Shown here: piece by piece, positions 33,935-64,000 of the stretch
Layout of the letters: each line of letters begins with the position of its first letter
How positions within the stretch are numbered: the stretch's first letter is position 1
Source of the DNA: Planktothricoides raciborskii GIHE-MW2
Lineage (GTDB): Bacteria > Cyanobacteriota > Cyanobacteriia > Cyanobacteriales > Laspinemataceae
NCBI RefSeq assembly: GCF_040564635.1
Contig: NZ_CP159837.1
Span: 419,801 to 483,800 of the forward strand
Length of the DNA: 64,000 bases
Reading direction: 5' to 3'
Position numbers and translations under genes: made by a program
Notes under the pieces: model-generated
Database searches by the model: none
Seen by the model: only the letters and a program-made list of their open reading frames with translations
What the model was told of the DNA's origin: nothing

Positions 33935-34580
33935 CAGCGGTTTTCTTTCTTAGTGAACCACCCTAGGGCGAAGCCCAAGCGGTATTTAATTTATTATTGT
34001 AGGGGCGAATGGCCATTCGCCCCTACACTGCCGGAATGCTTCGCCCCTACAGGTATTTGTGGTTTATTCAGCAGAAAATTGCTGTAAGGCCACGTTGCTT
34101 TGTTCTACCTTACCAGAGGAAAGAGAATACAGGAAAGAGAATAGAGTAAGGAAGGCATTGCCATCCCTGTGGTTGTTGTAGGGGCGCAATGCTTGCGCCC
34201 TTGAACCCTGGGAAAACGCCCTAAGTTGGGGGCGGGCGCTTGTAGGGCCTCTTCCGTGGCAGTGGTTGCCCCGATCGCCCGTGGTCGCCCCGCGCCCCTA
34301 CCCTGTCAGTGGGTCAGTCCTACAGCAATTTTCTGTAGAGTAAACCACAAATTTTTGTAGGGGCGAAGCATTCCGGCAGACAAATTATTGCTGAAAAGAT
34401 TAAATGTACGGGCCCGCGCATTCCGTAGGGGCGAATGGCCATTCGCCCTTGTACGGGCGAATGGCCATTCGCCCCAGAAGATGCTTAGAATATTAGATGG
34501 ACTACCGGAATGCTTCGCCCCTACGGAATGCGCGGGACCTACCCTGGTTCAGTAAGAAAGAAAACCGCTGTAATTTATTT
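33935..34580. repeat. Nested MITE cluster of the GTAGGGGCGAATGGCCATTCGCCCCTAC hairpin family
   Basis: Several hairpin copies, and units bounded by TTACAGCGGTTTTC...GCTGTAA. One unit spans about 33940-34080 and a larger composite spans about 34310-34580. Confidence 0.75.
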
Positions 34581-37500
34581 TTGTGATATTGGGGGCAAGA
34601 TGGAACATTGGGGAGATTCCCGTAAGGGATCCGCTTCGCGGAATCGCTCCCAAGGACTTCCTGAATTAACATTAGCGGCTTGGGCGATTAATTTCACCGA
34701 ACCATCGGCATCAACTGTCCATCCAGTTGCTTCTACAATCCGTTGATTGTCGATCGCCTCTGACGGTTCAATTGATGCGGAATAATTAGCCCGGTCATCA
34801 ATCCGTGGATCGATCCAAACTGTATCGCTACCCAGCCATGCATCAGGGTTTGGAGGCAATCCCCCCCGACCGATGACATAGAAACTACTGCCAGCAGAGG
34901 CATCACAAGTATCAGCAATTAAATTACTCAGTGAAATCACATTATTTTCTAATGCAACTAACCCTGATGCGGGGTCAACATCAGGGGTATTTAACTTAAC
35001 GGTGCCGCTAAATTCTGCCCCTAAATCCGAGGAAGCGGTGATATCGCTAAAGGGAGTATTAATATCTCGAAAATCCGTGCCAAAAATACCGTTAGCATTA
35101 ATCACAATTCGCCCGCCAAAACTTTGTTCTGCATTGGCAGAAATATCACTATTTTCTAGAGCAATTAAATTATCATTATTCAGAGTAATATTACCGCCAG
35201 TTGCTTCCCCAAAAGCGCTGGCGGTAATATTACTGTTATTTCTTAATTGAATATCTCCCGACGAAATAAATATATTCCCGCGATCGCCCGCAGCGGCAGT
35301 AGTGCTAATAATCCCTTGATTATCTAACAGAATTTCTCTGGCGGTAATTTCCACATTTCCCGCCGGACCTTTTCCCGGAGACAATGGGGCGTAACTGGCA
35401 AAATTACTGGCAGAAATTGCCGCGCGATCGCGGATAATTAACTGGTTCGTATTGAGAATCACATCCCCGCCCTTGCCGGTGCCGCTGCCATCTTCCGTTT
35501 CATCAAAAGCACTAGCAAATAACCCACTGCTGCCATTTTCTGATACACCAATTAATTCAATTAATTTGGCTCGGACAATCACATCTCCGGCATTACCCGA
35601 TCCACTGGTATTGGCAGTAAATTGACTCCCATCGGTTAAAGTCAATGACCCACCTGTTTCTATGGTAATTGTCCCTGCATTGCCATTAGCAAAAGTGCTA
35701 GAAGCCACAAAACCCGGATCGGATTCTACGGGATCTAAGCCAGTCATTTCAATAGATTCTGAAGCTTTTAAAGTGACATTTCCTGCATGACCTGACCCAA
35801 AGGTACTACTTTCGATTTTGCCGCCATTAGCAAACACTAACCGCCCGGTTTCAATTAAAATATCTCCCGCATTGGCACTGCCACCTTCTAAATAAGCGTT
35901 GGTACGCAAGCGACTGGCAGATCCTTCTAGGTCGGCGCCGATGATTTCCACAAAGTCCGAAGTTTGCACGGTAATCGAACCGCTATTCGCTGGGGCATCA
36001 CTTTTGGCGGTGCTGAGAATCCGACCCCCATCCCGTAAACTCAAGCCTCTAGCGGTAATATTCACATTTCCCCCATTGCCGGTACTGCCTTCGAGGGCTT
36101 CACTTCTAATCACGCTAAATCGGCCCACGTCATTGACCCCAAAAGCTTCTACCGTATCGGTGGCGTTAATCGTCACATCTCCGGCATTTCCGGCACCAAA
36201 GGTGGAAGTATTCAGAATGCCTTCATTTTCCAGGGTGAGTTTTCCCGTATTAAAAATTAAATTTCCCGCATTCCCCGTCCCGCGAGTAATGCTGGAAACT
36301 TCCGCATCTTTAATTGCCACAATATCTCTGGCATTGACCAGTAAATTGCCGCCCCGTCCCATATCCAAGGCATTAATAGAAATGTCGGCGCGATCGGAGA
36401 CAATTAATTTCCCCGTATTAATCGTAATATTGCCCCCCGATCCAATGCCACCGGACTCGGAAAATAAACCACTATTCGCCCCTCGGTTAGGATTAAAGTT
36501 ATCGGGATTAATCATAGTTTCCGCCACGGTGACAGCTTCGCTGCCTCGGTTTTGTAAGGAAACTTGTAAGGTATAAGTATCACCTACATCTAACCTATTG
36601 CCACTAATCGGCGATCCGGTAGCGGCAAAAGAATCTAATTCCGCCACTCCCAGCAGATAAATTCCCGGTTGGTCAAAGGTGACGTTTAAATAAGCATCAT
36701 GTTGTTCGCTGCTACCCCCCGCCCCACTGGTCGTCGGGGAATCATCATTGGTATAGAGTAAGTGTGCCGTGGCTAAGTTATATAAAAATATCTGAGTTTC
36801 TACATCTCCGGGGCCAGATTTTTTGGCGGCATCAATATCAAATATGCCTTGAGAATTAGCTTGAGTAATAGAAAATTTATAATAATCAAATGATTCTGTA
36901 GGGTCAGCAAGTACCGTTGTCCCGGCGATGATTTGTGCGGGAGTTCGCTGAATTGAGGTATAAGGAATACCATTAGATCCAGATGCTTCTACATCAGGAT
37001 TCGGTTGGGTGATAAATTCTAATAGGTTTAAATCAAATGCGGAAATCTTCGCCAAAGGATTGGGGAGAAAATTTGGGCTGCTGCCAGACAACTGGACGCT
37101 TTCGGTGGCATTAATTGTAATATCTCCGGCATTTCCGGGGGCAGTGGTGGCGGTGATAATTTGCCCCCCAGTTGCGATCGCGAGATTATTTACATTAATC
37201 TGAATTTGTCCGCCATTGTTCGGACTGTTGGTGACGGCAGCGATAAAGCCTCGGTTGGCTAAGGTGACATTTCCCGCAGGATTATTAATGATAATATTGC
37301 CCCCGGTTCCTGCGGTTTCTGTTTTGGATAAAATGCCGCTAAATAGTCCATCTGGAGTAAATCCAGAAATGTCGATCGCCCCAGTAGCATTAATCGCAAT
37401 ATCCCCCGCTTTGCCGTTTTGGTTAATGGTACTTTGGATGCGACTGCCCCCAGTGACGGTTAAATTGCCTACATCAATATTGATACCTTGATTGATACCA

Positions 37501-38279
37501 GAAACATTAATTAAACTGCGATTTCCTAGAGTAATATTTCCCCTGGTTATTTCTGGGGAAATTTGCCCTAAACCCAAGGCGGAATTTAACGGAACTTCGC
37601 CATTATTTCCTAGAGAAGCGATCGCAATTTGGCCATCGCTGGCCAAAAGTTGCCCCCCATTGAGGTTCACATCACCACCCACCAGGGTTAAACTTTGTCC
37701 GGGGTTGACCTGTAGGGTTGAACCTTGCAAGGTGAGTGACCCCGGACTGGTGGCAAATTGCAATCCTATGGGTAGATTAATGGTTAATAATGGCGCATCA
37801 TTTTTTTGAGTGGCACTAAAAAAATTACCATTGTTAAAATTTATCTGCTGCGCGGTAGAGGCGATAAAAGATCCGCCAATGGCTAATTGAGCATTTCGCC
37901 CAAACAAAATCCCATTCGGATTGAGTAAAAATAAGTTAGCGTTGCCGTTGGCTTTAACTATGCCATCAATATTAGAAACATTGTCCCCTGTCACTCGACT
38001 AAAGATATTTTCAATTGTTAAATAATTGTTAAAAAAAGCTTCCGTCCCCGTAGGCACAGAAAAGTCCTGAAAACTATGAAATAAACTGTCACCAGTGGTG
38101 GTTCCCCCTTCGATTTTGATGGTATTTCCTTCGGGTATGGCTACAGAATTATTTCGCAAGCTGCGATCGGGGATAATTTGGGCGTTGGTGGGAATACTAT
38201 AAAGTGTTTGTCCGAGCAAAACCACGGCCAAACTTTCGATAATTAATTGTGCGGGTAAACCCGGAAATTTTTTCTTCAT
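34575..38279 (-). CDS. Large exoprotein with an N-terminal two-partner-secretion (filamentous hemagglutinin / TpsA) domain and beta-helical repeats
   Basis: Signal peptide, then the TPS domain 'NTIKIEGGTTTGDSLFHSFQDFSVPTGTEAFFNN...IVKANGNANLFLLNPNGILFGRNAQL'. Long runs of GNxxI-type repeats follow, which also generate many spurious antisense ORFs. 1234 aa. Confidence 0.8.
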   Translation of the reverse strand: MKKKFPGLPAQLIIESLAVVLLGQTLYSIPTNAQIIPDRSLRNNSVAIPEGNTIKIEGGTTTGDSLFHSFQDFSVPTGTEAFFNNYLTIENIFSRVTGDNVSNIDGIVKANGNANLFLLNPNGILFGRNAQLAIGGSFIASTAQQINFNNGNFFSATQKNDAPLLTINLPIGLQFATSPGSLTLQGSTLQVNPGQSLTLVGGDVNLNGGQLLASDGQIAIASLGNNGEVPLNSALGLGQISPEITRGNITLGNRSLINVSGINQGINIDVGNLTVTGGSRIQSTINQNGKAGDIAINATGAIDISGFTPDGLFSGILSKTETAGTGGNIIINNPAGNVTLANRGFIAAVTNSPNNGGQIQINVNNLAIATGGQIITATTAPGNAGDITINATESVQLSGSSPNFLPNPLAKISAFDLNLLEFITQPNPDVEASGSNGIPYTSIQRTPAQIIAGTTVLADPTESFDYYKFSITQANSQGIFDIDAAKKSGPGDVETQIFLYNLATAHLLYTNDDSPTTSGAGGSSEQHDAYLNVTFDQPGIYLLGVAELDSFAATGSPISGNRLDVGDTYTLQVSLQNRGSEAVTVAETMINPDNFNPNRGANSGLFSESGGIGSGGNITINTGKLIVSDRADISINALDMGRGGNLLVNARDIVAIKDAEVSSITRGTGNAGNLIFNTGKLTLENEGILNTSTFGAGNAGDVTINATDTVEAFGVNDVGRFSVIRSEALEGSTGNGGNVNITARGLSLRDGGRILSTAKSDAPANSGSITVQTSDFVEIIGADLEGSASRLRTNAYLEGGSANAGDILIETGRLVFANGGKIESSTFGSGHAGNVTLKASESIEMTGLDPVESDPGFVASSTFANGNAGTITIETGGSLTLTDGSQFTANTSGSGNAGDVIVRAKLIELIGVSENGSSGLFASAFDETEDGSGTGKGGDVILNTNQLIIRDRAAISASNFASYAPLSPGKGPAGNVEITAREILLDNQGIISTTAAAGDRGNIFISSGDIQLRNNSNITASAFGEATGGNITLNNDNLIALENSDISANAEQSFGGRIVINANGIFGTDFRDINTPFSDITASSDLGAEFSGTVKLNTPDVDPASGLVALENNVISLSNLIADTCDASAGSSFYVIGRGGLPPNPDAWLGSDTVWIDPRIDDRANYSASIEPSEAIDNQRIVEATGWTVDADGSVKLIAQAANVNSGSPWERFREADPLRESPQCSILPPISQK

Positions 38280-39102: not shown

Positions 39103-39486
39103 GTGTTTTTCCTGAAAAATCGTCCTGATGATGCTGAGATCGCGGAAATTTATGCCGCGATCGGTCGCCTTGTTATCCGATTTCCATTGCTCCACTGTGA
39201 GGAATGCGCTCGCACCCTCACAGTATGGCTTAAACAACGTGGAATCCCAGGAAAAATTTGGCGACTCTCGACTCGATCCGATTATGAAGACTTTATTCTC
39301 AGCGAACGACTAGAAAAAATCGGTTGTACGGAAACTATTACGGAAAATGGCGTTCATTATGGAGTCGAAGTGTTTGGCAAAATCTTTGATAATCTTTCTA
39401 CAGAGGGACTTTTGCCCGATGATTGGATTAAAGATTTTACCTCATTATCTAATGAATTTGATGTTGAAGTGATTTCGGAGTTTTAG
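39103..39486 (+). CDS. Hypothetical protein, possibly a papain-fold (Cys/His) toxin-like domain
   Basis: 127 aa. A conserved-looking 'HCEECARTLTVWL' and 'HYGVEVFGKIFDN' could form a Cys-His dyad. The family call is speculative. Confidence 0.3.
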   Translation: MFFLKNRPDDAEIAEIYAAIGRLVIRFPLLHCEECARTLTVWLKQRGIPGKIWRLSTRSDYEDFILSERLEKIGCTETITENGVHYGVEVFGKIFDNLSTEGLLPDDWIKDFTSLSNEFDVEVISEF

Positions 39487-39502: not shown

Positions 39503-39901
39503 ATGGAAAAAAAGATGAGTACATTATTTAATCTACTGGATAAAATCAAGATAAAACCGGCACTTTACCTGGGAACGAGTTCGATTACTCATTTAAGAAT
39601 GTTCATTCTTGGCTATCGATTTGCTCGGTCAGAAATGGGCATTACTAACACGGAAGCAGAAAGTGACTTTTACAAAAACTTTCAACCCTGGCTGCAAAAT
39701 CGCTTATCCATTCATACGGTTAATGGGTGGGATAAAATTATTTTGCTGACCTGTATCGACGAAAAAGCAGCTTTTGATTATTTCTTTAACCTGTTAGATG
39801 AGTTTCTCCAGCGCGATCGCAGCCAAACGATCGATCCAATTCTCGTCGAATCTGCCTCAAAAGATGCCAATTTTGTAGGGGCAAAGCATTCGCTCCGATA
39901 A
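39503..39901 (+). CDS. Hypothetical protein, candidate immunity partner of the preceding ORF
   Basis: 132 aa, starting 17 bp downstream of 39103..39486. No family recognised. Confidence 0.3.
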   Translation: MEKKMSTLFNLLDKIKIKPALYLGTSSITHLRMFILGYRFARSEMGITNTEAESDFYKNFQPWLQNRLSIHTVNGWDKIILLTCIDEKAAFDYFFNLLDEFLQRDRSQTIDPILVESASKDANFVGAKHSLR

Positions 39902-46309: not shown

Positions 46310-46580
46310 GTTTGTTGGTTGGGGTGTAGGGTGTAGGGTGTAGGGTGTAGGGGAAGAGAGGGTGTAGGGTGTAGGGAATAGAGAATAGTGAATAGTGAAT
46401 AGTGAATAGTAAATAGTGAATAGTGAATAGTGATATTTATTTTGTACGGGCGAATGGCCATTCGCCCCTACGACTACGGGCGAATGGCCATTCGCCCCTA
46501 CGAATGCATCACTTTCTTCCCCCACACCCCCCACACCCCCCACACCCCACACCCCACACCCTACACCCCACACCCTACAC
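46310..46580. repeat. Block of STRR-type heptamer tandem repeats ((GGTGTAG)n, (AATAGTG)n, (CCCCACA/CCCTACA)n) with two GGGCGAATGGCCATTCGCCCCTAC hairpins in the middle
   Basis: Directly visible. These repeats generate spurious ORFs on both strands. Confidence 0.9.
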
Positions 46581-46592
46581 CCTGTTCTATAA

Positions 46593-47627
46593 ATGATGAC
46601 TCTGAAAGATTGCATAAATCCATTAACACTCCAGGGCAACCCGTTAAGTGTGGCGCCGATGATGGATTATACCGATCGCCATTTTCGCTATTTTATGCGG
46701 CAGATTACCCGTCGGACGCTGTTATATACGGAGATGGTGACGACCGCAGCGATTATTCACGGCGATCGCCCCCGACTGTTGGGTTTTTCTCCAGAGGAAA
46801 AGCCCGTATCCCTGCAACTGGGGGGGGACGATCCGCAGGAGTTGGCGGAATGCGTTCGCATTGGGACGGATTTTGGCTATGACGAGATTAATTTAAATGT
46901 CGGTTGTCCCAGCAGTCGGGTGCAAAATGGCAATTTTGGGGCTTGTTTGATGGCCCAACCAGACCGAGTTGCCCGGGCAGTGGAGGCTATGCAGCAAGCG
47001 ACCCATTTGCCGATTACGGTAAAACATCGGATTGGGATTGACGATCGCGATCGCTATGAGGATATGGCGAATTTTGTCCGGGTTGTTTCTGGGGCTGGGT
47101 GTCAGCGGTTTACCGTTCATGCCCGCAAAGCCTGGTTACAAGGGTTAAGTCCCAAGGAAAATCGCGATGTTCCGCCGTTGCGTTACGGTGATGTGTATCG
47201 TTTAAAGCAAGATTTTCCCCATTTGTTTGTGGAAATTAACGGCGGTGTGACTACTTTGGCCGAGGTTAAAGCACATTTGCAGTTGGTGGATGGGGTGATG
47301 ATTGGTCGGGCAGCTTACGATCGCCCTTATTTGTTTGCGGAATGCGATCGGGAGATTTATGGGGAAAATACTACGCCCCTGACGCGGCATCAAGTGGTTG
47401 AAGCCATGCTGCCTTATATTGAGTATTGGCTGAGTCAAGGGTTGAGTTTAAATAAGATGAGCCGACATTTGTTGTTATTGTTTAATGGACAACCGGGGAG
47501 TCGTGTTTGGAAACGATATCTGAGTGAAAATGCTCATGTTCCTGGGGCGGGAGTTGAGGTGATTCTGGCGGCTTTAGCCCAAGTTCCTCCCCCAGAGATG
47601 GCCGGTTTAACGGTATCAAATATTTGA
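46593..47627 (+). CDS. dusA: tRNA-dihydrouridine(20/20a) synthase DusA
   Basis: Strong similarity to E. coli DusA along the whole length: 'LSVAPMMDYTDRHFRYFMR...LLYTEMVTT.AIIHG', 'YDEINLNVGCPS.RVQNG.FGACLM', 'VKHRIGIDD', 'HARKAWLQGLSPKENR..PPL.Y', 'YLSENAH'. Confidence 0.9.
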   Translation: MMTLKDCINPLTLQGNPLSVAPMMDYTDRHFRYFMRQITRRTLLYTEMVTTAAIIHGDRPRLLGFSPEEKPVSLQLGGDDPQELAECVRIGTDFGYDEINLNVGCPSSRVQNGNFGACLMAQPDRVARAVEAMQQATHLPITVKHRIGIDDRDRYEDMANFVRVVSGAGCQRFTVHARKAWLQGLSPKENRDVPPLRYGDVYRLKQDFPHLFVEINGGVTTLAEVKAHLQLVDGVMIGRAAYDRPYLFAECDREIYGENTTPLTRHQVVEAMLPYIEYWLSQGLSLNKMSRHLLLLFNGQPGSRVWKRYLSENAHVPGAGVEVILAALAQVPPPEMAGLTVSNI

Positions 47628-47892
47628 CAACGGTCTGAATCGGCTAGGTTATGGGGATGGGTGCTTATCGGTTTTGCGGTTGGTTATGGGCGGGGTATAA
47701 TAGAGGTTGACCCGCAATCTGCGTCAGGGGATATTTGCGCGGAGGGGTGGGTGTAAAAACAGGGCAGGGCATTTTTTCCTCTGAACTGTTTATGGGGTCG
47801 AGGTTTGAGAGTTTTTGAGTCTCGAACCGATCCGCGCAAATCCTGAAATCCTTTGTGAGTCAGGGTTTTGGTTTATTCAGGTTTGAGGTCTG

Positions 47893-47923
47893 TTGACAAA
47901 TTTGGGGGGTTGCATGGTATGAT
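47893..47923 (+). promoter_or_regulatory. Candidate sigma70-type promoter in the CRISPR leader (TTGACA, 19 nt, TGgTATGAT extended -10)
   Basis: ttgacaaatttggggggttgcatggtatgat lies about 65 bp upstream of the first repeat and is oriented towards the array. The spacing is long, so this is tentative. Confidence 0.3.
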
Positions 47924-47986
47924 GAAGTCGATTCGCGCAAATGAACCTGGAAAATTAAATAAATCAAGGGTTCCGAGCCCCGGCCT

Positions 47987-50900
47987 GTTGCAACTATATT
48001 GAATCCCTATTAGGGATTGAAACGCTTAACCCGCTTACTTTGGGCGTAAGTATCCCAGTGGTTGCAACTATATTGAATCCCTATTAGGGATTGAAACTTG
48101 GCTTCTGGTAGCAGCGGGGTGTCGGTCGCGGGCGGTTGCAACTATATTGAATCCCTATTAGGGATTGAAACGCAACCCTAGATTAGCTTGTAAGTCGTAA
48201 TTGCTGTTGCAACTATATTGAATCCCTATTAGGGATTGAAACAAGGCGCAAATTGATGCAATTTGTCTTGAAAACTGGTGTTGCAACTATATTGAATCCC
48301 TATTAGGGATTGAAACCACCACCCGAACCGAAAACGGACGGACGCTGACCAAGCTGTTGCAACTATATTGAATCCCTATTAGGGATTGAAACTTCCGGGT
48401 TGCGATCGCGCTTCTCTTAATAGCGGAAAGTTGCAACTATATTGAATCCCTATTAGGGATTGAAACTGGCAGGTAAGCAATACCCGCTACACCGGCCACC
48501 TTAAGTTGCAACTATATTGAATCCCTATTAGGGATTGAAACAACAAACAGTAAACTATTTACGGCTTCTGAAAAAGTGGTTGCAACTATATTGAATCCCT
48601 ATTAGGGATTGAAACAAGCTTATAGGGATGCCAATGATGAATTTGAAGGCATAATGTTGCAACTATATTGAATCCCTATTAGGGATTGAAACCAACAAAT
48701 GACCAATTCATCAGGTGTGCAGATATGAGTTGCAACTATATTGAATCCCTATTAGGGATTGAAACTAAAATATATAGATTTTAGAATGGATCCAGCTTGC
48801 CTGTTGCAACTATATTGAATCCCTATTAGGGATTGAAACGTTTGGGGTGTGGGATGCGGTGAATCTGCCAAACGTTGCAACTATATTGAATCCCTATTAG
48901 GGATTGAAACAGTTGCCGGGCCTCTGAGGGTGAAACCGACGGCCTGATGGCGGTTTGTTGCAACTATATTGAATCCCTATTAGGGATTGAAACAGTTGCC
49001 GGTAAATTTTGAGAATTTCCAGGCAATGTTGCAACTATATTGAATCCCTATTAGGGATTGAAACGACAGCAAAATTTCTGGGATATGCTTGATAAAGTAG
49101 AGTTGCAACTATATTGAATCCCTATTAGGGATTGAAACTTCTAACCGATTGAGAACCGAATAAACCGATTTAATGTTGCAACTATATTGAATCCCTATTA
49201 GGGATTGAAACTTGTAAATTTCTTTCTTTCTTTTTCCCCTAAAAAAATGTTGCAACTATATTGAATCCCTATTAGGGATTGAAACTTAGCTAGTAAGAAA
49301 TCAGGCAAAAATAAACCAGAGAGTTGCAACTATATTGAATCCCTATTAGGGATTGAAACAGATACTGAGAGTGAGGGTCGGTTGCTGAAAGGTGTGTTGC
49401 AACTATATTGAATCCCTATTAGGGATTGAAACCAAAATGAACTTAACCAGTCTGGCTGCCTTCTCATGTTGCAACTATATTGAATCCCTATTAGGGATTG
49501 AAACTAGGGCTGACGAACGATCAAAAACTTTGGCTGACTCGTTGCAACTATATTGAATCCCTATTAGGGATTGAAACGTTATGCGGCAAACTGCTTAAAA
49601 TAGCTTTGGCCAAACGACTCGTTGCAACTATATTGAATCCCTATTAGGGATTGAAACGTTATGCGGATCCAGAATTACCAGGGATTCTGGTTGAGTTGCA
49701 ACTATATTGAATCCCTATTAGGGATTGAAACTGATGCGGCTTGTTGACTTGATTTATTGGTAGCAAGTGTTGCAACTATATTGAATCCCTATTAGGGATT
49801 GAAACTTCAGACAACATAAAGCCTCGGTCACGCCAGACTCCGTGTTGCAACTATATTGAATCCCTATTAGGGATTGAAACTGGGAATACGATCGCCCGGC
49901 TCCGACTCCGGCATGGTGTTGCAACTATATTGAATCCCTATTAGGGATTGAAACGATAGATAGGAAAATGTTGACCAAAAACTTCAACAAAGTGTTGCAA
50001 CTATATTGAATCCCTATTAGGGATTGAAACGCTGCGGCCCAAACACCCCCGCGCTTGGTGGCGATGTTGCAACTATATTGAATCCCTATTAGGGATTGAA
50101 ACCCTGAGTTGCAGCGTTTATCAGTCGAAAATTATGGTTGCAACTATATTGAATCCCTATTAGGGATTGAAACTCGCCAAAAACAAAAACCCCGACGCCT
50201 TACGGCATCGGGTTGCAACTATATTGAATCCCTATTAGGGATTGAAACTTAAACTATCACTTAACTGCTGACTTTTTTCCTTTGTTGCAACTATATTGAA
50301 TCCCTATTAGGGATTGAAACAGCAACCACGCCGTTGCCGTAATGTTGAGAAGCGGTATGTTGCAACTATATTGAATCCCTATTAGGGATTGAAACCTCGA
50401 ATTGCAGCACCGCGAAGCTGCAAATCATGTTGCAACTATATTGAATCCCTATTAGGGATTGAAACCGTTGCCGACGCGGGTAGTGGACTTCAAGGGTAAG
50501 CAGGTTGCAACTATATTGAATCCCTATTAGGGATTGAAACTTTTTTGAGCGATCGCACCCGACCTCCTACACCCCCAGTTGCAACTATATTGAATCCCTA
50601 TTAGGGATTGAAACGGCTTTCATTTCATACACCCCCAAAAATTGCAGCGATGTTGCAACTATATTGAATCCCTATTAGGGATTGAAACGATGCTGTGGCA
50701 ACCAATCAGCCCAGAAACCGGGGAAAAGTTGCAACTATATTGAATCCCTATTAGGGATTGAAACAATTGGATTACGATCATCAAAAATAAAGGCTATTTT
50801 AGTTGCAACTATATTGAATCCCTATTAGGGATTGAAACGGGGGGTGGAGCCCAGGAACCCAGCAATGGGATTCAGGAGAGTAATGTTGCAACTATATTGA

Positions 50901-53900
50901 ATCCCTATTAGGGATTGAAACGACAGTTTGGCTGACATACTGTTAGTATAATGCGTTGCAACTATATTGAATCCCTATTAGGGATTGAAACGGCAATGTA
51001 CAATCTGAGAATATTACCATATAAGAATGGTTGCAACTATATTGAATCCCTATTAGGGATTGAAACTGAGTCTCCACTGAGTTTTTTATTGGGAACCGAG
51101 ACAGTTGCAACTATATTGAATCCCTATTAGGGATTGAAACCTGTTCGGTGGAGATTGAACGAAGTTATGGCAAGAGTTGCAACTATATTGAATCCCTATT
51201 AGGGATTGAAACAGAGCGATCGCTGAAATCCGACCCGCTACTGCCTCACTAGAAAGTTGCAACTATATTGAATCCCTATTAGGGATTGAAACTTGTAGTG
51301 ACTGGCTGGAGACTTGCACTGATTGAGTTGCAACTATATTGAATCCCTATTAGGGATTGAAACACTTCCAGATACGGGCATCTTAGGTGATCAATTCCGG
51401 TTGCAACTATATTGAATCCCTATTAGGGATTGAAACCTTTGCATTGCCGGATCGTCCGTCTAGCCACGGCAAAGTTGCAACTATATTGAATCCCTATTAG
51501 GGATTGAAACAAGGCGCTCATTCATACCTTCGGCCCTTTCTCTCATTGTTGCAACTATATTGAATCCCTATTAGGGATTGAAACCGAGTTACTTGCTACC
51601 GTCCGTTACCACCGTTTGGTGGTTGCAACTATATTGAATCCCTATTAGGGATTGAAACCGATCCAGGGTGTCGGTTTGGCAATCATAAAGCTAGGTTGCA
51701 ACTATATTGAATCCCTATTAGGGATTGAAACAATTTCGTCTGCCATCGGTGCCAGATTTTGTAGGGCTGGTTGCAACTATATTGAATCCCTATTAGGGAT
51801 TGAAACGAAGGGATGGTTCTATGAGGCTACAAATTAACGAGTTGCAACTATATTGAATCCCTATTAGGGATTGAAACAGCCACGTTAGCACGCTTAAAAT
51901 CTGCTTACCTGATAGGTTGCAACTATATTGAATCCCTATTAGGGATTGAAACCAGTACAGGCATTGACATCTCAGGCATCTATCAAAGTTGCAACTATAT
52001 TGAATCCCTATTAGGGATTGAAACCTTGAGGCTCACTATCCGACGCGCCAACGGTCGGGTTGCAACTATATTGAATCCCTATTAGGGATTGAAACGGGGA
52101 GATCGCTCTGGCACCTTGACCACCCCCGACGGCGTTGCAACTATATTGAATCCCTATTAGGGATTGAAACGGCAAGTATCGCGGGCGATTCTGCACTCAA
52201 GAAAGCGAGTTGCAACTATATTGAATCCCTATTAGGGATTGAAACAATGCCTGTACTGCCATAGGTGAAATCCCATCGCCGTCACAGTAAGTAATGATGG
52301 ATCCGCTAATTGAAACAATGCCTGTACTGCCATAGGTGAAATCCCCACAGATCGCCGTTGCAACTATATTGAATCCCTATTAGGGATTGAAACGAATTGG
52401 GTCACTATATCTTGGTGGGAAATGCCAGTTGCAACTATATTGAATCCCTATTAGGGATTGAAACATACCTTCAATTTCAGCGATCTTAACGGCAAGTGCG
52501 TTGCAACTATATTGAATCCCTATTAGGGATTGAAACATTAACGTCCCAGCAAATTAGCTATTTGCTGGGACAAGTGTTGCAACTATATTGAATCCCTATT
52601 AGGGATTGAAACTACAGCATTCCCATCATCGTCAAAGTCAAGCCCATAGGTTGCAACTATATTGAATCCCTATTAGGGATTGAAACAGAATTGCCACCTC
52701 CTAGGTCTAAAATGCCATTGATTGTTGCAACTATATTGAATCCCTATTAGGGATTGAAACCGGGGGGTGGGTTTTGGGCTGATTCTGAACCCTGAACGTT
52801 GCAACTATATTGAATCCCTATTAGGGATTGAAACTAAAATTTTGGAACTAACAAAGTTGGAATGAGAAAAAGTTGCAACTATATTGAATCCCTATTAGGG
52901 ATTGAAACCGGTTAATATTCACGGTTTACACCCCCCCTAAAATTGGTTGCAACTATATTGAATCCCTATTAGGGATTGAAACACAGATGACCCTCGATCA
53001 ACTAAATCACCTGGTGGCAGGTTGCAACTATATTGAATCCCTATTAGGGATTGAAACCTGTAGCCCGTGTCAGCGAATCTGCCAAGATTACGTTGCAACT
53101 ATATTGAATCCCTATTAGGGATTGAAACACTGGCTTGAGTGGAAATAAAGGGACTACCCTTAATTGTTGCAACTATATTGAATCCCTATTAGGGATTGAA
53201 ACCAGTCCCGCGTAAACCGTGGGAAACAATGGCATTGGGTTGCAACTATATTGAATCCCTATTAGGGATTGAAACAACAAAAAGTAAGCTGTTCACTGCC
53301 TCTGAAGTGTTGCAACTATATTGAATCCCTATTAGGGATTGAAACGCTAAAAGCTTTGGCTTTGCAAATAGTAGGGCTGCTCGTTGCAACTATATTGAAT
53401 CCCTATTAGGGATTGAAACCAATTAATGCTTAAAGATCCTAAATCGATTTTTTCGTTGCAACTATATTGAATCCCTATTAGGGATTGAAACACGCACAAA
53501 ACAGGCGCAAAGAAGCAAGCGGGCGAGGGGTTGCAACTATATTGAATCCCTATTAGGGATTGAAACATTATTTTTTCTACTTATATCAAATCTTTTGATG
53601 ATGTTGCAACTATATTGAATCCCTATTAGGGATTGAAACTCCTACTCAGAAGAGATGAACACACCGGATCCGAGCGTTGCAACTATATTGAATCCCTATT
53701 AGGGATTGAAACTAAAAAAGAAGTATTGCAAATAGGACACCCTATGGTTGCAACTATATTGAATCCCTATTAGGGATTGAAACAACTCTTTTTGTTGATG
53801 AGGCGATCACAAGCCACCGTTGCAACTATATTGAATCCCTATTAGGGATTGAAACGCTCCACAAATTCACCGCTGCGGTGCCAATCTCCTGGTTGCAACT

Positions 53901-56900
53901 ATATTGAATCCCTATTAGGGATTGAAACCGCTAAATTTAGCGGACGATGGGTGGACAACCATCGAGTTGCAACTATATTGAATCCCTATTAGGGATTGAA
54001 ACGGGATTTTCTGATTTTAAAATCAAATTCAAAAAAATGTTGCAACTATATTGAATCCCTATTAGGGATTGAAACAACTTGCATTCCTTCAAAATTAGTA
54101 ATTTTATATTGTTGCAACTATATTGAATCCCTATTAGGGATTGAAACTATACCAGGAACTCATGAATTTATTGAAAATGTTACTGTTGCAACTATATTGA
54201 ATCCCTATTAGGGATTGAAACAATCCCATAGATTTATCGCCGCGATCGCCACCCTGCGTTGCAACTATATTGAATCCCTATTAGGGATTGAAACGGGGAA
54301 GGAAAAACCTATATTCAGGCACCCAAAATGTTGCAACTATATTGAATCCCTATTAGGGATTGAAACCGACAAGAAAACTGGTGAAATCGACAAAAAAGCC
54401 GGTTGCAACTATATTGAATCCCTATTAGGGATTGAAACGGGTTTATCAGATGCAAAAGAGAACCATTTTTCTGTTGCAACTATATTGAATCCCTATTAGG
54501 GATTGAAACCACCTATAGCCGGGGGACGAGTAGCGGAAGAGCCAAAGTTGCAACTATATTGAATCCCTATTAGGGATTGAAACTTGGACATTGGCGGCGG
54601 TAACTCTACAGGGTGTCTGTGTTGCAACTATATTGAATCCCTATTAGGGATTGAAACCGGGGTGATTGTATCCGGGCATTTTGTATAAGCGGTCGTTGCA
54701 ACTATATTGAATCCCTATTAGGGATTGAAACCTTAGATTTTCTGGAACTGTGGGGACTTAGAAAATCAGTTGCAACTATATTGAATCCCTATTAGGGATT
54801 GAAACACGGCAGCAGCAATGATTCCGCTAAGGCTAATGTGCGTTGCAACTATATTGAATCCCTATTAGGGATTGAAACCCTTTTTGATGTTTTTTGCCGC
54901 ATACTTAACGTTAAAGTTGCAACTATATTGAATCCCTATTAGGGATTGAAACGGGGCTACCTCTCACCGAGCCTCACCGAAAATTCCTCGTTGCAACTAT
55001 ATTGAATCCCTATTAGGGATTGAAACAGAAACATTTTCCCATTGCGATTGATTAAAGGTAAATGTTGCAACTATATTGAATCCCTATTAGGGATTGAAAC
55101 TATTCAAGATTACTTGGATTATAAAATCAAACAAGAAGTTGCAACTATATTGAATCCCTATTAGGGATTGAAACATCCCCTGCTGACAACCGGGGCCGCA
55201 GTAAGTCACAAGCGAGTTGCAACTATATTGAATCCCTATTAGGGATTGAAACTGGACTTTTGGCTAAAAACGACCAGACGGCCGCACAGGTTGCAACTAT
55301 ATTGAATCCCTATTAGGGATTGAAACGGCAATCTGTGATTTGTGATGGGAGTATTAAACCAAGTTGCAACTATATTGAATCCCTATTAGGGATTGAAACT
55401 AGATAATTGATAGCTAACTCTGATTTACCGCTGCCCCGTTGCAACTATATTGAATCCCTATTAGGGATTGAAACTAAAGTTGCGATCGCCATAACAGAAA
55501 GTCCCTGATTCGTTGCAACTATATTGAATCCCTATTAGGGATTGAAACCCATTGCTTATAGTCCTTAAAATAGTTTGTCAACGTTGCAACTATATTGAAT
55601 CCCTATTAGGGATTGAAACTAGCAACCGATTCTGGTAAACCTGAAAGTAGATTTGTGTTGCAACTATATTGAATCCCTATTAGGGATTGAAACGTAATTG
55701 ACAAAAAGTAAGCTATTCACGGCTTCTGAAGTTGCAACTATATTGAATCCCTATTAGGGATTGAAACTTTTGTTTTGGATTTAGCCTTTAGCCGCCTCTA
55801 GCAGTTGCAACTATATTGAATCCCTATTAGGGATTGAAACAATGCCGTGTTGCGTTGTTGATTAACGCGGGTAATGAGTTGCAACTATATTGAATCCCTA
55901 TTAGGGATTGAAACGTAATTGACAAAAAGTAAGCTATTCACGGCTTCTGAAAAAGGTTGCAACTATATTGAATCCCTATTAGGGATTGAAACATACAAAA
56001 TGCAACAACCCCCCTAGACTTTCGGCTAGGTTGCAACTATATTGAATCCCTATTAGGGATTGAAACTTGAGCAATTACCTTTGCCCCCATCGCCAATTCA
56101 GGGTTGCAACTATATTGAATCCCTATTAGGGATTGAAACTCTAAGTTTGCTGACAGCGCTATAACTTAGCCCGCTTCGTTGCAACTATATTGAATCCCTA
56201 TTAGGGATTGAAACGATAGCAGGATGGCTTGACGAGTGGGCAATTTTCGGTGTTGCAACTATATTGAATCCCTATTAGGGATTGAAACAAGACGCGATCG
56301 CCGCAAAAAGGGACTAGCTAACCCCCGTTGCAACTATATTGAATCCCTATTAGGGATTGAAACACAAGCCTCACTTGGATCCGCTAATTCTGCGATATGA
56401 GATGGGAGTTGCAACTATATTGAATCCCTATTAGGGATTGAAACCAACTGATCCATCCGCAGTCTCAGGCCGGTGATCACTGTTGCAACTATATTGAATC
56501 CCTATTAGGGATTGAAACAACGACACTGAACAACAAACCATCACCCTGATTTTCAGGTTGCAACTATATTGAATCCCTATTAGGGATTGAAACGACAAAA
56601 AGCAAGCTATTGACCGCTTCTGAGAAACGTTGCAACTATATTGAATCCCTATTAGGGATTGAAACCGGATGGACCCTAAATCAAGAACAACGCCGGATCC
56701 TCGTTGCAACTATATTGAATCCCTATTAGGGATTGAAACAGTGCGATCGCCACCTTCATAACTGATGGCGTCAGCAGTTGCAACTATATTGAATCCCTAT
56801 TAGGGATTGAAACGCCCCCCGACAAAGACAAAAATTGCTGGTTGCAGGCCGTTGCAACTATATTGAATCCCTATTAGGGATTGAAACTAAAAGTTTCTTT

Positions 56901-59900
56901 GGCGGGCTTCGCCAATACAAAGCAGTTGCAACTATATTGAATCCCTATTAGGGATTGAAACCATTTATCGAGGTAAAAATGAAACGAAAAAATATCAAGT
57001 TGCAACTATATTGAATCCCTATTAGGGATTGAAACGAACAAGTCAAAGTTGAAGCCGAAAAGATAGGCCAATGTTGCAACTATATTGAATCCCTATTAGG
57101 GATTGAAACGGGAAGAACGGGCGACCAGTAAGGATCGAATCCGAGTTGCAACTATATTGAATCCCTATTAGGGATTGAAACCTCTGCCAATTTTCGAGAT
57201 GCACTAAAGCTAGGAGTTGCAACTATATTGAATCCCTATTAGGGATTGAAACGGCGATCGCGAGTTCGATCAACTTGATTAATTCGTGTTGCAACTATAT
57301 TGAATCCCTATTAGGGATTGAAACAGACTCCCAGGGGCGGATGAATGTGGACTTCATTCGTTGCAACTATATTGAATCCCTATTAGGGATTGAAACATCC
57401 ATTGATTGATTATGACTACCAAGTTAATGAGTGTTTCAGTTGCAACTATATTGAATCCCTATTAGGGATTGAAACGATACTTTTACATTGCCAATTAATC
57501 GCATCATAGTTGTTGCAACTATATTGAATCCCTATTAGGGATTGAAACGTTCTGCTCCAAGGTGAAGTCGTAGGAGCCGGGGGGAGACTCATCGTTGCAA
57601 CTATATTGAATCCCTATTAGGGATTGAAACATTGTTGCGATCGCTCCACCAAGCAAAAATTCAGCAGGTTGCAACTATATTGAATCCCTATTAGGGATTG
57701 AAACGGCTGCTCCCAAGGAAAATAATTCTCATAGTCAAAGTTGCAACTATATTGAATCCCTATTAGGGATTGAAACAACGCATTAAATTTAACGAATTTC
57801 TGATTAATAATTGTTGCAACTATATTGAATCCCTATTAGGGATTGAAACAAAACAAATCACCAGAATTTTGCTCAAACATCTGGTTGCAACTATATTGAA
57901 TCCCTATTAGGGATTGAAACACCAGAACCTAATACTTTAGATCTAAAACTAATCATGTTGCAACTATATTGAATCCCTATTAGGGATTGAAACTCTTTTT
58001 CCGTTTTTAGTTTTTGGCATCTTTTTGTTGCAACTATATTGAATCCCTATTAGGGATTGAAACAAGGCGTGTAACCACCACTTCACTTACTTGCTGCGAT
58101 CGTTGCAACTATATTGAATCCCTATTAGGGATTGAAACAGCAGGAGTCGAGCGAGCTTTAGAGTCTAGCGGATGTTGCAACTATATTGAATCCCTATTAG
58201 GGATTGAAACAACTTACGAACCTACCGCTTGCAAGATTACTTTTACAGTTGCAACTATATTGAATCCCTATTAGGGATTGAAACACTCTTGCGATCGCTC
58301 CACCAAGCAAAAATTCAGCAGGGTTGCAACTATATTGAATCCCTATTAGGGATTGAAACTCGTAGGTCTTGTTCCAGAACTTCTGGAGCTAGTAGTTGCA
58401 ACTATATTGAATCCCTATTAGGGATTGAAACATAATATCTTCTCTCCTTAATTAATTCTCTACCTTGTTGCAACTATATTGAATCCCTATTAGGGATTGA
58501 AACGCGAAGGACAATCGGACTAAGTATTATCTATATAAGAGTTGCAACTATATTGAATCCCTATTAGGGATTGAAACGCCTTTTTCTCCCTTTTCTCCTT
58601 TTTCTCCTTTTTGTTGCAACTATATTGAATCCCTATTAGGGATTGAAACTTCTACTAAAACAAACCCTACTGCTGATTTCCAGAGTTGCAACTATATTGA
58701 ATCCCTATTAGGGATTGAAACAACCAAAGCTGCACTGGCAGTAGTAGCACCAGTCGTTGCAACTATATTGAATCCCTATTAGGGATTGAAACGGGGCGAT
58801 TATGAAAACATGGGTATTGCTGTAATGTTGCAACTATATTGAATCCCTATTAGGGATTGAAACTCAAAAATCATATAGCCAGTATTCAGAGTGGATAAAG
58901 TTGCAACTATATTGAATCCCTATTAGGGATTGAAACAGTGAATAGCTGTCTGTCTATGGCAGAAAAGGTGCGTGTTGCAACTATATTGAATCCCTATTAG
59001 GGATTGAAACCTACCCCCCATCCCCCCTAGTGTGGTCTCATGCGATGTTGCAACTATATTGAATCCCTATTAGGGATTGAAACTTGATAGTGAAACCATT
59101 CCTCATAAAATGAACTACGGGTTGCAACTATATTGAATCCCTATTAGGGATTGAAACTTGATAGTGAAACCATTCCTCATAAAATGAACTACGGGGTTGC
59201 AACTATATTGAATCCCTATTAGGGATTGAAACAACTCGACGGTAGCCGTGCCACCGGCTTGAGAAGATTGTTGCAACTATATTGAATCCCTATTAGGGAT
59301 TGAAACCGGTTTTTCTCCGCTCGCTTGCGGCGCTAGGCTACGGGTTGCAACTATATTGAATCCCTATTAGGGATTGAAACGCTTCTACTGTGGATCAGAT
59401 CGTAGCGGGGGCTACTGTTGCAACTATATTGAATCCCTATTAGGGATTGAAACGGGCTTTATAATCTGCCCAGAAATCCTTCCAGAGGTTGCAACTATAT
59501 TGAATCCCTATTAGGGATTGAAACCGCCTGGTTTTGCGCTTGGCACTGGTATCCGCACGTTGCAACTATATTGAATCCCTATTAGGGATTGAAACCTCTC
59601 TCATCTGTTTTTGCTTCATTTTATAGTATTCAGGTTGCAACTATATTGAATCCCTATTAGGGATTGAAACGGGGAAATCCTTTGGGGACAGACCGAATGG
59701 GAAGACGTTGCAACTATATTGAATCCCTATTAGGGATTGAAACTCTACAACAAAATCTAGATGGCCTTTGCCACAGGGTGTTGCAACTATATTGAATCCC
59801 TATTAGGGATTGAAACCATAAGTGTCTATGGATGTCTTGGCCTAATTCTTTGTTGCAACTATATTGAATCCCTATTAGGGATTGAAACTGTTCATCGCGG

Positions 59901-62900
59901 GCAACCTCGTCTCTGGCCTTGAAAAGTTGCAACTATATTGAATCCCTATTAGGGATTGAAACCTAAACTTTCAATCTCAACTTTACGGGAGATAAGAGGG
60001 TTGCAACTATATTGAATCCCTATTAGGGATTGAAACGCAGTTGGGCCGAAGTCGAGGGACTTTTAGGATTCACGTTGCAACTATATTGAATCCCTATTAG
60101 GGATTGAAACTTTGGGGTGAAATCAGACCTAGATTCATTAGCTTTAGTGTTGCAACTATATTGAATCCCTATTAGGGATTGAAACATTAAGCCCGTGCCG
60201 AGGCTGATAGATATCATCCAAAATGTTGCAACTATATTGAATCCCTATTAGGGATTGAAACATTGCGATCGCACCCAAGGGGGGGGGTGATCGTGGGTGT
60301 TGCAACTATATTGAATCCCTATTAGGGATTGAAACGACAAATGCAGCGGGCACTGATAGGATGTAATTGCGATGTTGCAACTATATTGAATCCCTATTAG
60401 GGATTGAAACGACTAAAAAGACAACTGAAAATAAATGAGGAAAATGTTGCAACTATATTGAATCCCTATTAGGGATTGAAACCCTCTGTATAGATCGCGA
60501 AAAGATAGAAAGTTTCTGTGTTGCAACTATATTGAATCCCTATTAGGGATTGAAACAAATTCGCTAGTCGTACGCAAGTACGCGAAAGCTTAGTTGCAAC
60601 TATATTGAATCCCTATTAGGGATTGAAACAAGTTCTTGATGATGCTCCAGTTTTTTATTGCCATTTTGTTGCAACTATATTGAATCCCTATTAGGGATTG
60701 AAACTACGGATTAAACCTTTGAAGGAAAATATCAAGCTTTTGCGGTTGCAACTATATTGAATCCCTATTAGGGATTGAAACGGAACACACCCACAATGGC
60801 TCAACAAACATATTTTGGTTGCAACTATATTGAATCCCTATTAGGGATTGAAACCTCTGGTTTATATATATAATTCTAGCGACCTGGTTGTTGCAACTAT
60901 ATTGAATCCCTATTAGGGATTGAAACACGGATTAAGCCACTCAAAGAAAATATCAAGCTTTTGGTTGCAACTATATTGAATCCCTATTAGGGATTGAAAC
61001 AGCGATCGCATCCGCATCCACATCCGAGGTCGGGGTCGGTTGCAACTATATTGAATCCCTATTAGGGATTGAAACATCGTATCCCCGTCTGAAATGCGAT
61101 CAACTTGCCACGTTGCAACTATATTGAATCCCTATTAGGGATTGAAACCCAGATGGGGTTGACTGCGATCGATTCAGCGGCGGCGGTTGCAACTATATTG
61201 AATCCCTATTAGGGATTGAAACAAGTGGGCCGGGGGTGGGTGGGTGGGCGTGTTGGTTTTGTTGCAACTATATTGAATCCCTATTAGGGATTGAAACGAT
61301 TTTCTCCTGATTTTGGTGTTTGCGGTGAGTATTGTTGCAACTATATTGAATCCCTATTAGGGATTGAAACAAGTGGGCCGGGGGGCGGGCGGGTGGGCGC
61401 GTTGGTTGCAACTATATTGAATCCCTATTAGGGATTGAAACACCGCCGACGATTACCCCGGCCTATACCGCAATGGAAAGTTGCAACTATATTGAATCCC
61501 TATTAGGGATTGAAACTCAAATACTTATCGAGGTTTGGTCGGAAATGAATAGTGGTTGCAACTATATTGAATCCCTATTAGGGATTGAAACCAAGGTGAA
61601 GCGATCGCCATTCCGGGATAAAACATGGGTTGCAACTATATTGAATCCCTATTAGGGATTGAAACTGGAAATCTTGATCGGAGAGGGTAGCCGGTGCTAT
61701 GCCGTTGCAACTATATTGAATCCCTATTAGGGATTGAAACGTCAAACTTAGCGCTGATGCGGGTTTTAAAGTTTTTTGGTTGCAACTATATTGAATCCCT
61801 ATTAGGGATTGAAACTTTGCGATTTAAGCGGGGTGAGGCTGAAAAGCTTGTTGCAACTATATTGAATCCCTATTAGGGATTGAAACAGGGTAAAGCGATC
61901 GCCATTCCGACTAAGAACATGGCGGTTGCAACTATATTGAATCCCTATTAGGGATTGAAACTTGGGTATTTCCGACAAAAGGGAAAAATTAAAAGTCGGG
62001 TTGCAACTATATTGAATCCCTATTAGGGATTGAAACGCGATTTGAACGCGCGATCGAGGGCTTATGAGGCTTTTGTTGCAACTATATTGAATCCCTATTA
62101 GGGATTGAAACGGATTAAATCTTGTTGGGGCAGCGACTCCAGAATGTTGCAACTATATTGAATCCCTATTAGGGATTGAAACACACTCTAACCAAGTGCA
62201 AAAAAGTGCAGGGCAAGCGTTGCAACTATATTGAATCCCTATTAGGGATTGAAACCTCGGGCTAATGAAAGTAAAACTATTTATGTTTCCAGTTGCAACT
62301 ATATTGAATCCCTATTAGGGATTGAAACGATTAAGAGTTAGAGAATTTGCTTGCAAGTTGGCTGTGGTTGCAACTATATTGAATCCCTATTAGGGATTGA
62401 AACCGCAGCATTTCCAGGGATATTCCCAGATATTTGAGCGGTTGCAACTATATTGAATCCCTATTAGGGATTGAAACACATTTTGCATAATTTTTTCACC
62501 AATTATCTTACATAGTTGCAACTATATTGAATCCCTATTAGGGATTGAAACAAGTCCGACGGGGGTTGTTCAAGACCCGATTACAAAAGTTGCAACTATA
62601 TTGAATCCCTATTAGGGATTGAAACGGAAACAGATTTTTTGTCGAATATCCCCAGCAAATGTTGCAACTATATTGAATCCCTATTAGGGATTGAAACGTA
62701 AGAGGTCTGATGGGTGCAGCCGCAGGTGCCGCGTTGCAACTATATTGAATCCCTATTAGGGATTGAAACGTAATCAAAGGTGATTCCAGCAAAGAATCTT
62801 ATTGGTTGCAACTATATTGAATCCCTATTAGGGATTGAAACGATTCTGGGTAAGCAGTCCCAACAACCATAAAGCTAGGGTTGCAACTATATTGAATCCC

Positions 62901-64000
62901 TATTAGGGATTGAAACGCTTGGAAAGCAGGGAAGCAATGCCCCACATCCGCGAGTTGCAACTATATTGAATCCCTATTAGGGATTGAAACCAGCCGAACC
63001 ACTGGTGAGGCAATCCTCCGGCAAGTTGCAACTATATTGAATCCCTATTAGGGATTGAAACAACCACCTTCGCGGATGTGGGGCATTGCTTCCCTGCTTT
63101 CCAGTTGCAACTATATTGAATCCCTATTAGGGATTGAAACATCTCGGTTACAAACCACTCTAATTTTGATGTTTTGTTGCAACTATATTGAATCCCTATT
63201 AGGGATTGAAACTTTCCCGTGCCTGTGGGGGGGGATAGCAATACAAAAGTTGCAACTATATTGAATCCCTATTAGGGATTGAAACGTAAAATGGTCGTTT
63301 TTTGCGGGTAAGTATTGATCGAGTTGCAACTATATTGAATCCCTATTAGGGATTGAAACATATAAGAATTCGGAAGTGCTGGTGCCATTGAATTCATCAA
63401 GTTGCAACTATATTGAATCCCTATTAGGGATTGAAACCTCTACATCTTTGGGTGGGTAGTAGTCTCCTCGCGGTTGCAACTATATTGAATCCCTATTAGG
63501 GATTGAAACTTAATGACTCAATCTCAGATTCTAGGGATTGAATGTTGCAACTATATTGAATCCCTATTAGGGATTGAAACCATTTCCGATTGCTCCCGAA
63601 CCTTGACAAGTATTGTTGCAACTATATTGAATCCCTATTAGGGATTGAAACGCCTTCCGTGCGGATAACTATTACTTTGTACCCAGTTGCAACTATATTG
63701 AATCCCTATTAGGGATTGAAACCGGATTCTTATCGCGATCAGCCAGCGGGCTACAGTTAGTTGCAACTATATTGAATCCCTATTAGGGATTGAAACGCTC
63801 TCTGCTTTCCGATTGAGCGATTCTTCGGAGACGACGGAGTTGCAACTATATTGAATCCCTATTAGGGATTGAAACTTCCTATTGATTGCTACTTATTTTT
63901 GATTTAGTCTATGTTGCAACTATATTGAATCCCTATTAGGGATTGAAACCAGGACTTTGGATTCTCAGCAGTGTAGGAGTGATAGAGTTGCAACTATATT
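47987..64000 (+). CRISPR. CRISPR array of about 218 repeat-spacer units. Repeat 37 bp GTTGCAACTATATTGAATCCCTATTAGGGATTGAAAC, spacers about 33-45 bp. The array continues beyond the window end.
   Basis: The repeat is perfectly conserved from the first copy at 47987 to the truncated copy at 63976-64000. It has an internal palindrome AATCCCTA..TAGGGATT and a 3' ATTGAAAC, the typical 5'-handle precursor of Cas6-processed crRNAs. This orients transcription on the + strand, with the leader on the dusA side. No cas genes lie within the window. Confidence 0.98.

Follow-up and report, generated by a model that had tools for sequence, protein, structure and literature searches.

Introduction

Spacer uptake by a type I-D CRISPR system has been studied in Synechocystis. 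Kieper et al. (2018, PMC5896167) reported that an upstream GTN motif is selected by Cas4, that the spacer length varies by 5–6 nt, and that the module has no strand bias. Heidelberg et al. (2009, PMC2612747) investigated cyanobacterial mats and found that silent or conservative variants were concentrated in the stretch of a viral lysin gene that is matched by spacers; the variants went down to about 70% nucleotide identity with the peptide unchanged. Independent re-acquisition of the same protospacer has also been documented (Kupczok et al. 2015, PMC4524480; Rao et al. 2016, PMC5071653). Here, we explored a CRISPR array in a stretch of 64,000 nucleotides from Planktothricoides raciborskii GIHE-MW2 (contig NZ_CP159837.1, positions 419,801 to 483,800 of the forward strand), which we call the window. 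The array holds families of related spacers. Our analysis suggests that each family probably results from the same protospacer site being captured independently, more than once, from homologous DNA that was diverged by then. As in Synechocystis type I-D adaptation, the spacers of the window have one precise end, variable length, and mixed strand.

Results and Discussion

Seven Families of Related Spacers

All spacers were locally aligned against each other in both orientations (46,010 oriented pairs), with three shuffled spacer sets as control. We found 17 spacer pairs with scores of 19–37; the shuffled maximum was 14, and no real pair scored 15–18. These 17 pairs group into seven families, F1–F7 (Table 1). 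An initial annotation, made from the sequence, had described five families of spacers as variants of common targets. All five are real by these scores, and the all-pair alignment, which served to cluster the spacers, recovered them together with F6 and F7. The families were thus placed correctly, but three of the positions given for their members (58276–58313, about 60918, and about 61878) were wrong by 9 nt. A degenerate pattern of F1 had exactly five matches in the window, namely the F1 spacers, against 0.00 expected.

Table 1. Positions of the spacer family members and of the other features of the CRISPR locus in the window (sp, spacer)
Feature	Positions	Strand	Description
F1 sp8	48542–48578	+	Newest F1 member; four differences from sp107, all synonymous wobble changes in the minus-strand frame FSEAVNSLLFV
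F1 sp71	53276–53308	+	Differs from sp107 at four wobble positions; one codon at the 3′ end is non-synonymous
F1 sp104	55694–55730	+	Same as nt 1–37 of sp107; begins 6 nt upstream of the start of sp8, sp71, and sp116
F1 sp107	55915–55955	+	5′ end as sp104; 3′ end 4 nt longer
F1 sp116	56594–56628	+	Oldest F1 member; differs from sp107 at four wobble positions and at one position in the last, partial codon
F2 sp130	57631–57667	+	33 nt identical to sp139; two differences in the first 4 nt; one HIP1 octamer
F2 sp139	58285–58322	+	Start as sp130; 1 nt longer
F3 sp172	60705–60744	+	Five differences from sp175; none changes an amino acid in the plus-strand frame RIKPLKENIKLL
F3 sp175	60927–60963	+	Starts 1 nt after sp172 in the common register
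F4 sp179	61223–61260	+	G-rich; three T/C differences from sp181 and a 1-nt indel; no coding signal
F4 sp181	61371–61404	+	5′ end as sp179
F5 sp184	61592–61628	+	Differs from sp188 at seven positions, each of them synonymous in the minus-strand frame HVLSRNGDRFT(L)
F5 sp188	61887–61924	+	Starts 1 nt after sp184 in the common register
F6 sp150	59084–59120	+	37 nt identical to the adjacent sp151; missed by the initial annotation
F6 sp151	59158–59195	+	5′ end as sp150; one extra nt at the 3′ end
F7 sp202	62917–62953	+	34-nt perfect reverse-complement overlap with sp204; missed by the initial annotation
F7 sp204	63062–63103	+	sp202 locus, taken up in the opposite orientation
CRISPR array	47987–63949	+	216 identical 37-nt repeats (GTTGCAACTATATTGAATCCCTATTAGGGATTGAAAC) and 215 spacers; extends beyond the window end
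CRISPR leader	47628–47986	+	Between the Dus gene and the first repeat
Dus gene	46593–47627		Directly before the leader
Aberrant 111-nt unit	52246–52356	+	Two copies of a 29-nt spacer start (AATGCCTGTACTGCCATAGGTGAAATCCC) around a badly degenerate repeat; missed by the initial annotation

Two further spacers that the initial annotation missed, sp34 (50466–50503) and sp55 (52025–52058), may be related to each other in opposite orientation. They encode LEVHYPRRQ and LEAHYPTRQ and are identical at 21 of 29 nt, with several of the differences at wobble positions. At the protein level their score was 50, and the shuffled maxima were 45–49, so that sp34 and sp55 are a borderline candidate for a more diverged family pair. 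A wider diverged family of sp183, sp186, sp187, and sp190, which was considered on the basis of Tandem Repeats Finder (TRF) periods of 221 and 296, was rejected, as the alignment scores were ordinary. One spacer, sp143 (58578–58612), is pyrimidine-rich and of low complexity (GCCTTTTTCTCCCTTTTCTCCTTTTTCTCCTTTTT), unlike the remaining spacers.

Synonymous Divergence within Families

We compared the peptides encoded by the spacers in six frames (blastp-short) and found that the members of F1, F3, and F5 encode identical peptides at 11–19% nucleotide difference. The peptides are FSEAVNSLLFV(NY) on the minus strand for F1, RIKPLKENIKLL on the plus strand for F3, and (R)HVLSRNGDRFT(L) on the minus strand for F5. 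In F1, the nine variable columns of the core share one codon phase. The minus frame has eight synonymous variable codons and one non-synonymous variable codon, and the latter sits at the ragged 3′ end. The F1 members vary at 9 of about 11 wobble positions with the core amino acids unchanged. Within the spacers, the differences are spread over all wobble positions with no concentration at the 5′ (seed) end. In F3, the variable codons are four synonymous and zero non-synonymous. All variable codons of F5 are synonymous, including switches of Ser (TCC/AGT) and Leu (TTA/CTT). When random mutations were simulated, the observed pattern was matched in 0/20000 trials for F1, with p = 0.0021 for F3 and p = 0.0002 for F5.

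Because almost all differences in F1, F3, and F5 are synonymous changes at third codon positions, the divergence did not arise in the array. It arose before capture, in protein-coding genes under purifying selection. In F1 and F5, the divergence looks like old standing variation among related elements or paralogues rather than recent escape, because the wobble positions of F1 are near saturation and the codon switches of F5 take several steps. Through this codon-periodic, synonymous pattern, the spacers alone can reveal a conserved coding target, its coding strand, and the fact that several diverged relatives were met, even when the target sequence is absent from databases.

Common 5′ Ends and Position in the Array

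The members of a family begin at the same 5′ position, or 1 nt from it, and end 1–6 nt apart at the 3′ side. F1 uses two registers, which are 6 nt apart. The pairs sp104/sp107 and sp150/sp151 have identical cores and different 3′ ends. Because identical cores recur with differing 3′ ends, these pairs are direct evidence that one site was captured independently, at hot spots whose anchor is the 5′ end. Identical re-captures exist, and an acquisition bias is therefore directly evidenced as well. On the host side, the common 5′ register and the ragged 3′ ends record how the adaptation complex measures spacers. We found no end-nucleotide bias in the spacers.

In the array, the neighbours of family members are unrelated to each other. 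The members of the six two-member families are only 1–9 spacers apart (P about 3 × 10−7 under random placement), and therefore most related captures took place in close succession. The clustered pairs may each have been captured in one episode from variants that were present together. F1 spans positions 8 to 116 (108 spacer positions); two of its members are 3 spacers apart, and members lie up to 63 spacers apart. The coding orientation is mixed, with F1 and F5 antisense, F3 sense, and F7 in both orientations. Both orientations are as expected for a DNA-targeting system.

Search for the Spacer Sources

Mapping of the spacers to cyanophage, plasmid, and metagenome sequence, which the initial annotation had proposed, recovered no protospacer. 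The degenerate DNA pattern of F1 was absent from viral contigs, from 185,579 species-representative genomes, and from Joint Genome Institute (JGI) metagenomes. The fully back-translated pattern of F1 and the back-translated patterns of F3 and F5 had no match in viral contigs, and neither had the 24-mers of F2, F6, and F7. In the metagenomes, the back-translated F1 pattern matched two mutually identical sequences (L085 and L086) that encode FSEAVNCLLFV. We rejected both as chance matches, as their flanks disagree and no other spacer matches them.

The whole array was also compared by megablast. This gave no protospacer in phages, and plasmids gave weak hits with no usable protospacer match. Concatenated spacers compared by blastn gave no protospacer in phages or plasmids. 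A composite of four spacer-encoded peptides found no candidate among 5.8 billion proteins, which is a weak negative result, since the word index is evidently sparse for short peptides. Because all protospacer searches failed, the sources of the spacers are unsampled.

The spacers (48024–63912) contain the HIP1 octamer GCGATCGC at 1.76 per kb, in 14 spacers. The density is 1.44 per kb in the host DNA of the window and 0.86 per kb in the spacers of related arrays, and base composition predicts about 0.01 per kb. The HIP1 density of the spacers therefore indicates that their sources have a host-like, cyanobacterial genome signature. A HIP1-rich repeat of the host was named in the initial annotation as an origin that would overturn its reading. 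The results speak against this origin. When the spacers were compared with the 48 kb of host DNA in the window and with 81 fetched loci, only HIP1-centred matches of 14–17 nt were obtained, and none of them is a spacer match. The absence of the F1 pattern from the species-representative genomes further disfavors a host repeat. F2 and F5 hold one HIP1 octamer each, yet their similarity runs over 33–36 nt.

Repeat, Leader, and Adaptation Machinery

The locus has the identical, regularly placed repeats and the unique spacers of similar length that define a CRISPR array. The 215 spacers are 33–46 nt long with a mode of 37 nt, and parsing of the repeats found mutations in 0/216 copies. The count of 216 repeats is a lower bound, because the window ends inside the array. 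Rfam CRISPR-DR5 matches the repeat on the plus strand with 48.5 bits (gathering score 40).

The first repeat is 359 nt from the Dus gene. Toward its 3′ end, this gap (last ~50 nt, about 47930–47976) is 80–86% identical to the sequence before the first repeat of many related arrays. We fetched 79 related arrays from species-representative genomes, and the degenerate repeat is nearly always the last one when these arrays are read in the GTTGCAAC to GAAAC orientation. Because the Rfam strand, the position of the degenerate repeat in the relatives, and the conservation of the leader agree, the leader lies at the 5′ end of the array, with spacer 1 as the newest. Five public runs (SRR27753952, SRR29644585, SRR31564085, SRR29729369, and SRR27753938; Logan contigs L001–L005) encode a Dus protein identical to that of the window. 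Their Dus contigs are 1.3–1.5 kb long, carry a leader that is 98–100% identical, and end within or just before the first repeat.

The leader motif is common to the window and its relatives. The exact repeat of the window was in none of the fetched loci. Arrays of the repeat family were found immediately after cas6, cas4, cas1, and cas2, and full type I-D operons preceded them where the fetched sequence reached further. In Westiellopsis, a cyanobacterial metagenome-assembled genome (MAG), and Microseira, arrays of this repeat family stand directly downstream of a cas10d-csc2-csc1-cas6-cas4-cas1d-cas2 operon. NCBIfam equivalogs of Cas10d/Csc3, Cas7/Csc2, Cas5/Csc1, Cas6, Cas4, and Cas1d were found in L015, L050, and L053, upstream of arrays whose repeats have the form GTTGCAAC-N8-ATCCCTATTAGGGATTGAAAC. 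In the window, no such operon adjoins the array on its leader side, and we do not file the array as a type I-D locus. Because its repeat and leader family adjoin type I-D operons in relatives, the array most likely relies on a type I-D Cas4-Cas1-Cas2 module whose genes lie in another part of the genome. With at least 216 repeats, all unmutated, a leader motif that looks intact, and a leader side free of cas genes for 48 kb, it appears to be a very large array located away from its own cas operon.

Possible Explanations of the Recurrent Captures

The initial annotation interpreted the families as repeated acquisition from diverged versions of one locus. This agrees with our results, in that the members differ in length and ends, their neighbours are unrelated, the repeats are identical, and the changes in F1, F3, and F5 are synonymous. 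Independent capture of the same protospacer site from already diverged homologous DNA is, in our opinion, the probable explanation. The source of F1, F3, and F5 would be a strongly conserved protein-coding gene in several diverged relatives of an invader, or diverged copies of a gene. The adaptation machinery probably uses a sequence motif to fix one end of each new spacer and is less exact in trimming the other. Such motif-anchored uptake would return to the earlier register each time the cell is entered by a homologue carrying that motif. We infer mobile elements as the sources and a motif as the anchor of spacer uptake.

Several results weigh against this explanation. The searched collections (phage, plasmid, viral, genome, and metagenome) yielded no protospacer. 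The coding argument spans three of the five variant families: F2 has only two differences, and F4, with an indel in its G-run, shows no coding signal. Across window positions 1–47986, the 48 kb that precede the array, the sizeable open reading frames (ORFs) matched no Cas family, and the type I-D assignment is taken from the repeat and leader family of the relatives. The triplet preceding sp8, sp71, and sp116, read from the longer variant sp107, is ATT and not GTN. This is the only readable upstream triplet, and its first base is the wobble position of an Asn codon. We predict that GTT precedes sp8, sp71, and sp116 in the other F1 variants, where it would create a GTN motif, and that ATT would explain the other register in the source of sp104 and sp107.

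Mismatch-primed adaptation, in which an older, partly matching spacer triggers re-capture of the updated same protospacer a few units later, could also account for some of these observations, although we regard it as rather unlikely. Variant and identical pairs are indeed 1–9 spacers apart, and in the Legionella type I-C system two independently acquired spacers on the same protospacer were observed under priming (PMC5071653). However, the members of F1 are up to 63 spacers apart. Flipped and slipped spacers are known by-products of primed adaptation, and the flipped pair sp202/sp204 and the 1-nt slipped starts in F3 and F5 fit this. But priming normally spreads new spacers around the priming site, and beside the pairs we detected no spacers that overlap or look adjacent. 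To our knowledge, priming has not been demonstrated in type I-D, which also counts against it. An escape-driven arms race in one invader lineage, with synonymous escape in the protospacer and re-acquisition of each variant in turn, is improbable. An essential gene would tolerate synonymous change only, so that escape would look synonymous, and in cyanobacterial mats silent or conservative variation is concentrated in the region of a viral gene that matches spacers (PMC2612747). However, the wobble sites of F1 are near saturation, the Ser and Leu switches of F5 would need several steps, and pairs with 5–7 differences are merely 3–4 spacers apart. In addition, the identical re-captures (sp104/sp107 and sp150/sp151) bring no benefit and point to acquisition bias over selection. 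The arms race proposed in the initial annotation is therefore upheld as to separate captures of diverged variants, but not as to escape mutants of one element, since the divergence looks old.

The variants might instead be diverged paralogues of a multi-copy gene, such as a transposase, in one element or genome, captured in a single encounter. Variant pairs are close together in the array, and the HIP1 density of the spacers suggests sources that resemble cyanobacterial DNA. We still consider a single encounter unlikely, as the F1 pattern is absent from the species-representative genomes and JGI metagenomes, there is no copy in the host DNA of the window, and the F1 members are spread over 108 spacer positions. 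Some related arrays do contain duplicated blocks of identical spacers (2 × 5 spacers in Microseira wollei L064, for example), which could suggest that repeat-spacer units were duplicated in the array and then acquired point mutations, or that the families are an assembly artefact. This is extremely improbable here, because the differences are codon-periodic and synonymous, lengths and registers differ, the flanking spacers are unrelated, and 0/216 repeats are mutated. For F1, F3, and F5, in-array duplication is refuted by the synonymous pattern, and block duplication in the window is ruled out by the unrelated neighbours of family members.

A bolder proposal is that the array deliberately keeps an "allele library" that covers one conserved gene across a diverse family of invaders; it would be built up as mismatch-primed uptake in type I-D takes the same protospacer again. 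We think this doubtful. If it were true, it would be the first sign of type I-D priming, and of a way to update a spacer in place in sequence space and not by sampling nearby sites. If the targets are recovered, the locus would be a natural test of acquisition bias against priming and escape, and of whether type I-D primes. It would also test whether a wobble change that makes or breaks a GTN motif shifts the register, as F1 suggests.

Comparison with Related Arrays

The pairs compared within arrays were similar in number for the related arrays (22,902) and the window (23,005). The related arrays contain two diverged pairs and 13 identical pairs, and the window contains 13 diverged pairs in five families and three identical pairs. 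The identical pairs of the related arrays are mostly from block duplications in L064 (Microseira wollei NIES-4236), which has two such duplications of five identical spacers each. One of the two diverged pairs of the related arrays, spacers 11 and 18 of L016 (uncultured cyanobacterium MAG, contig_1918; a genome unrelated to that of the window), has the same start and mostly wobble-periodic differences, as in the window families. Repeated capture of diverged variants is a general phenomenon that is moderately enriched in the array of the window.

Other Features of the Window

In the aberrant unit of the array (Table 1), the two 29-nt copies continue as ATCGCC and CACAGATCGCC, respectively. The middle piece of this unit is 36 nt long; of the repeat, only GT...ATTGAAAC remains. 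The middle piece has 14 nt (TGGATCCGCTAATT) in common with spacer 113 (56376–56389). Mis-integration and deletion are possibilities for the origin of the unit.

The 48 kb upstream of the array are ordinary cyanobacterial chromosome, with genes for CobN/ChlH, GUN4, orange carotenoid protein, SRP54, PhoH, a radical-SAM protein, DUF218, and Dus. The minus strand at 34575–38279 encodes a protein of 1234 aa that carries a TPS secretion domain. A small papain-fold toxin (Tox-PL-2) is at 39103–39486, and after it comes a 132-aa ORF with no Pfam match at 39503–39901. These genes may form a secreted-toxin and immunity neighbourhood. Two P-loop NTPases belong to defence-like families: one of 672 aa (6288–8306) with weak KAP, YobI, and BrxC/D-like matches, and one of 463 aa (25104–26495) of the NB-ARC/STAND type. 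Dense tandem repeats of heptamers (GGGTGTA, TAGTGAA, and CACACCC) were found at 46322–46582, in a patch that begins just upstream of the Dus ORF and extends over its start. With them is a perfect 30-nt duplication (TACGGGCGAATGGCCATTCGCCC...), which is also present at 34425–34474.

Comparison with Known Systems

The repeat family and leader motif of the window match those of arrays beside type I-D operons. Unlike the Synechocystis system, the array of the window is very long (at least 216 repeats) and is apart from any cas operon on its leader side. As in the mats studied by Heidelberg et al. (2009), a conserved coding stretch is matched by spacers and its variants are silent or conservative. 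However, the variants of that study were in the virome, whereas here up to four versions are held by one host array in the same register. Like the hot spots of Kupczok et al. and Rao et al., the locus has taken the same protospacer more than once (sp104/sp107, sp150/sp151, and the flipped pair sp202/sp204). Unlike in those cases, most recurrences of a site come here from diverged homologues, and not from the same molecule. With its very long array and its repeat of a type I-D family, the window locus shows a known phenomenon cleanly from the host side, and is not a new kind of system.

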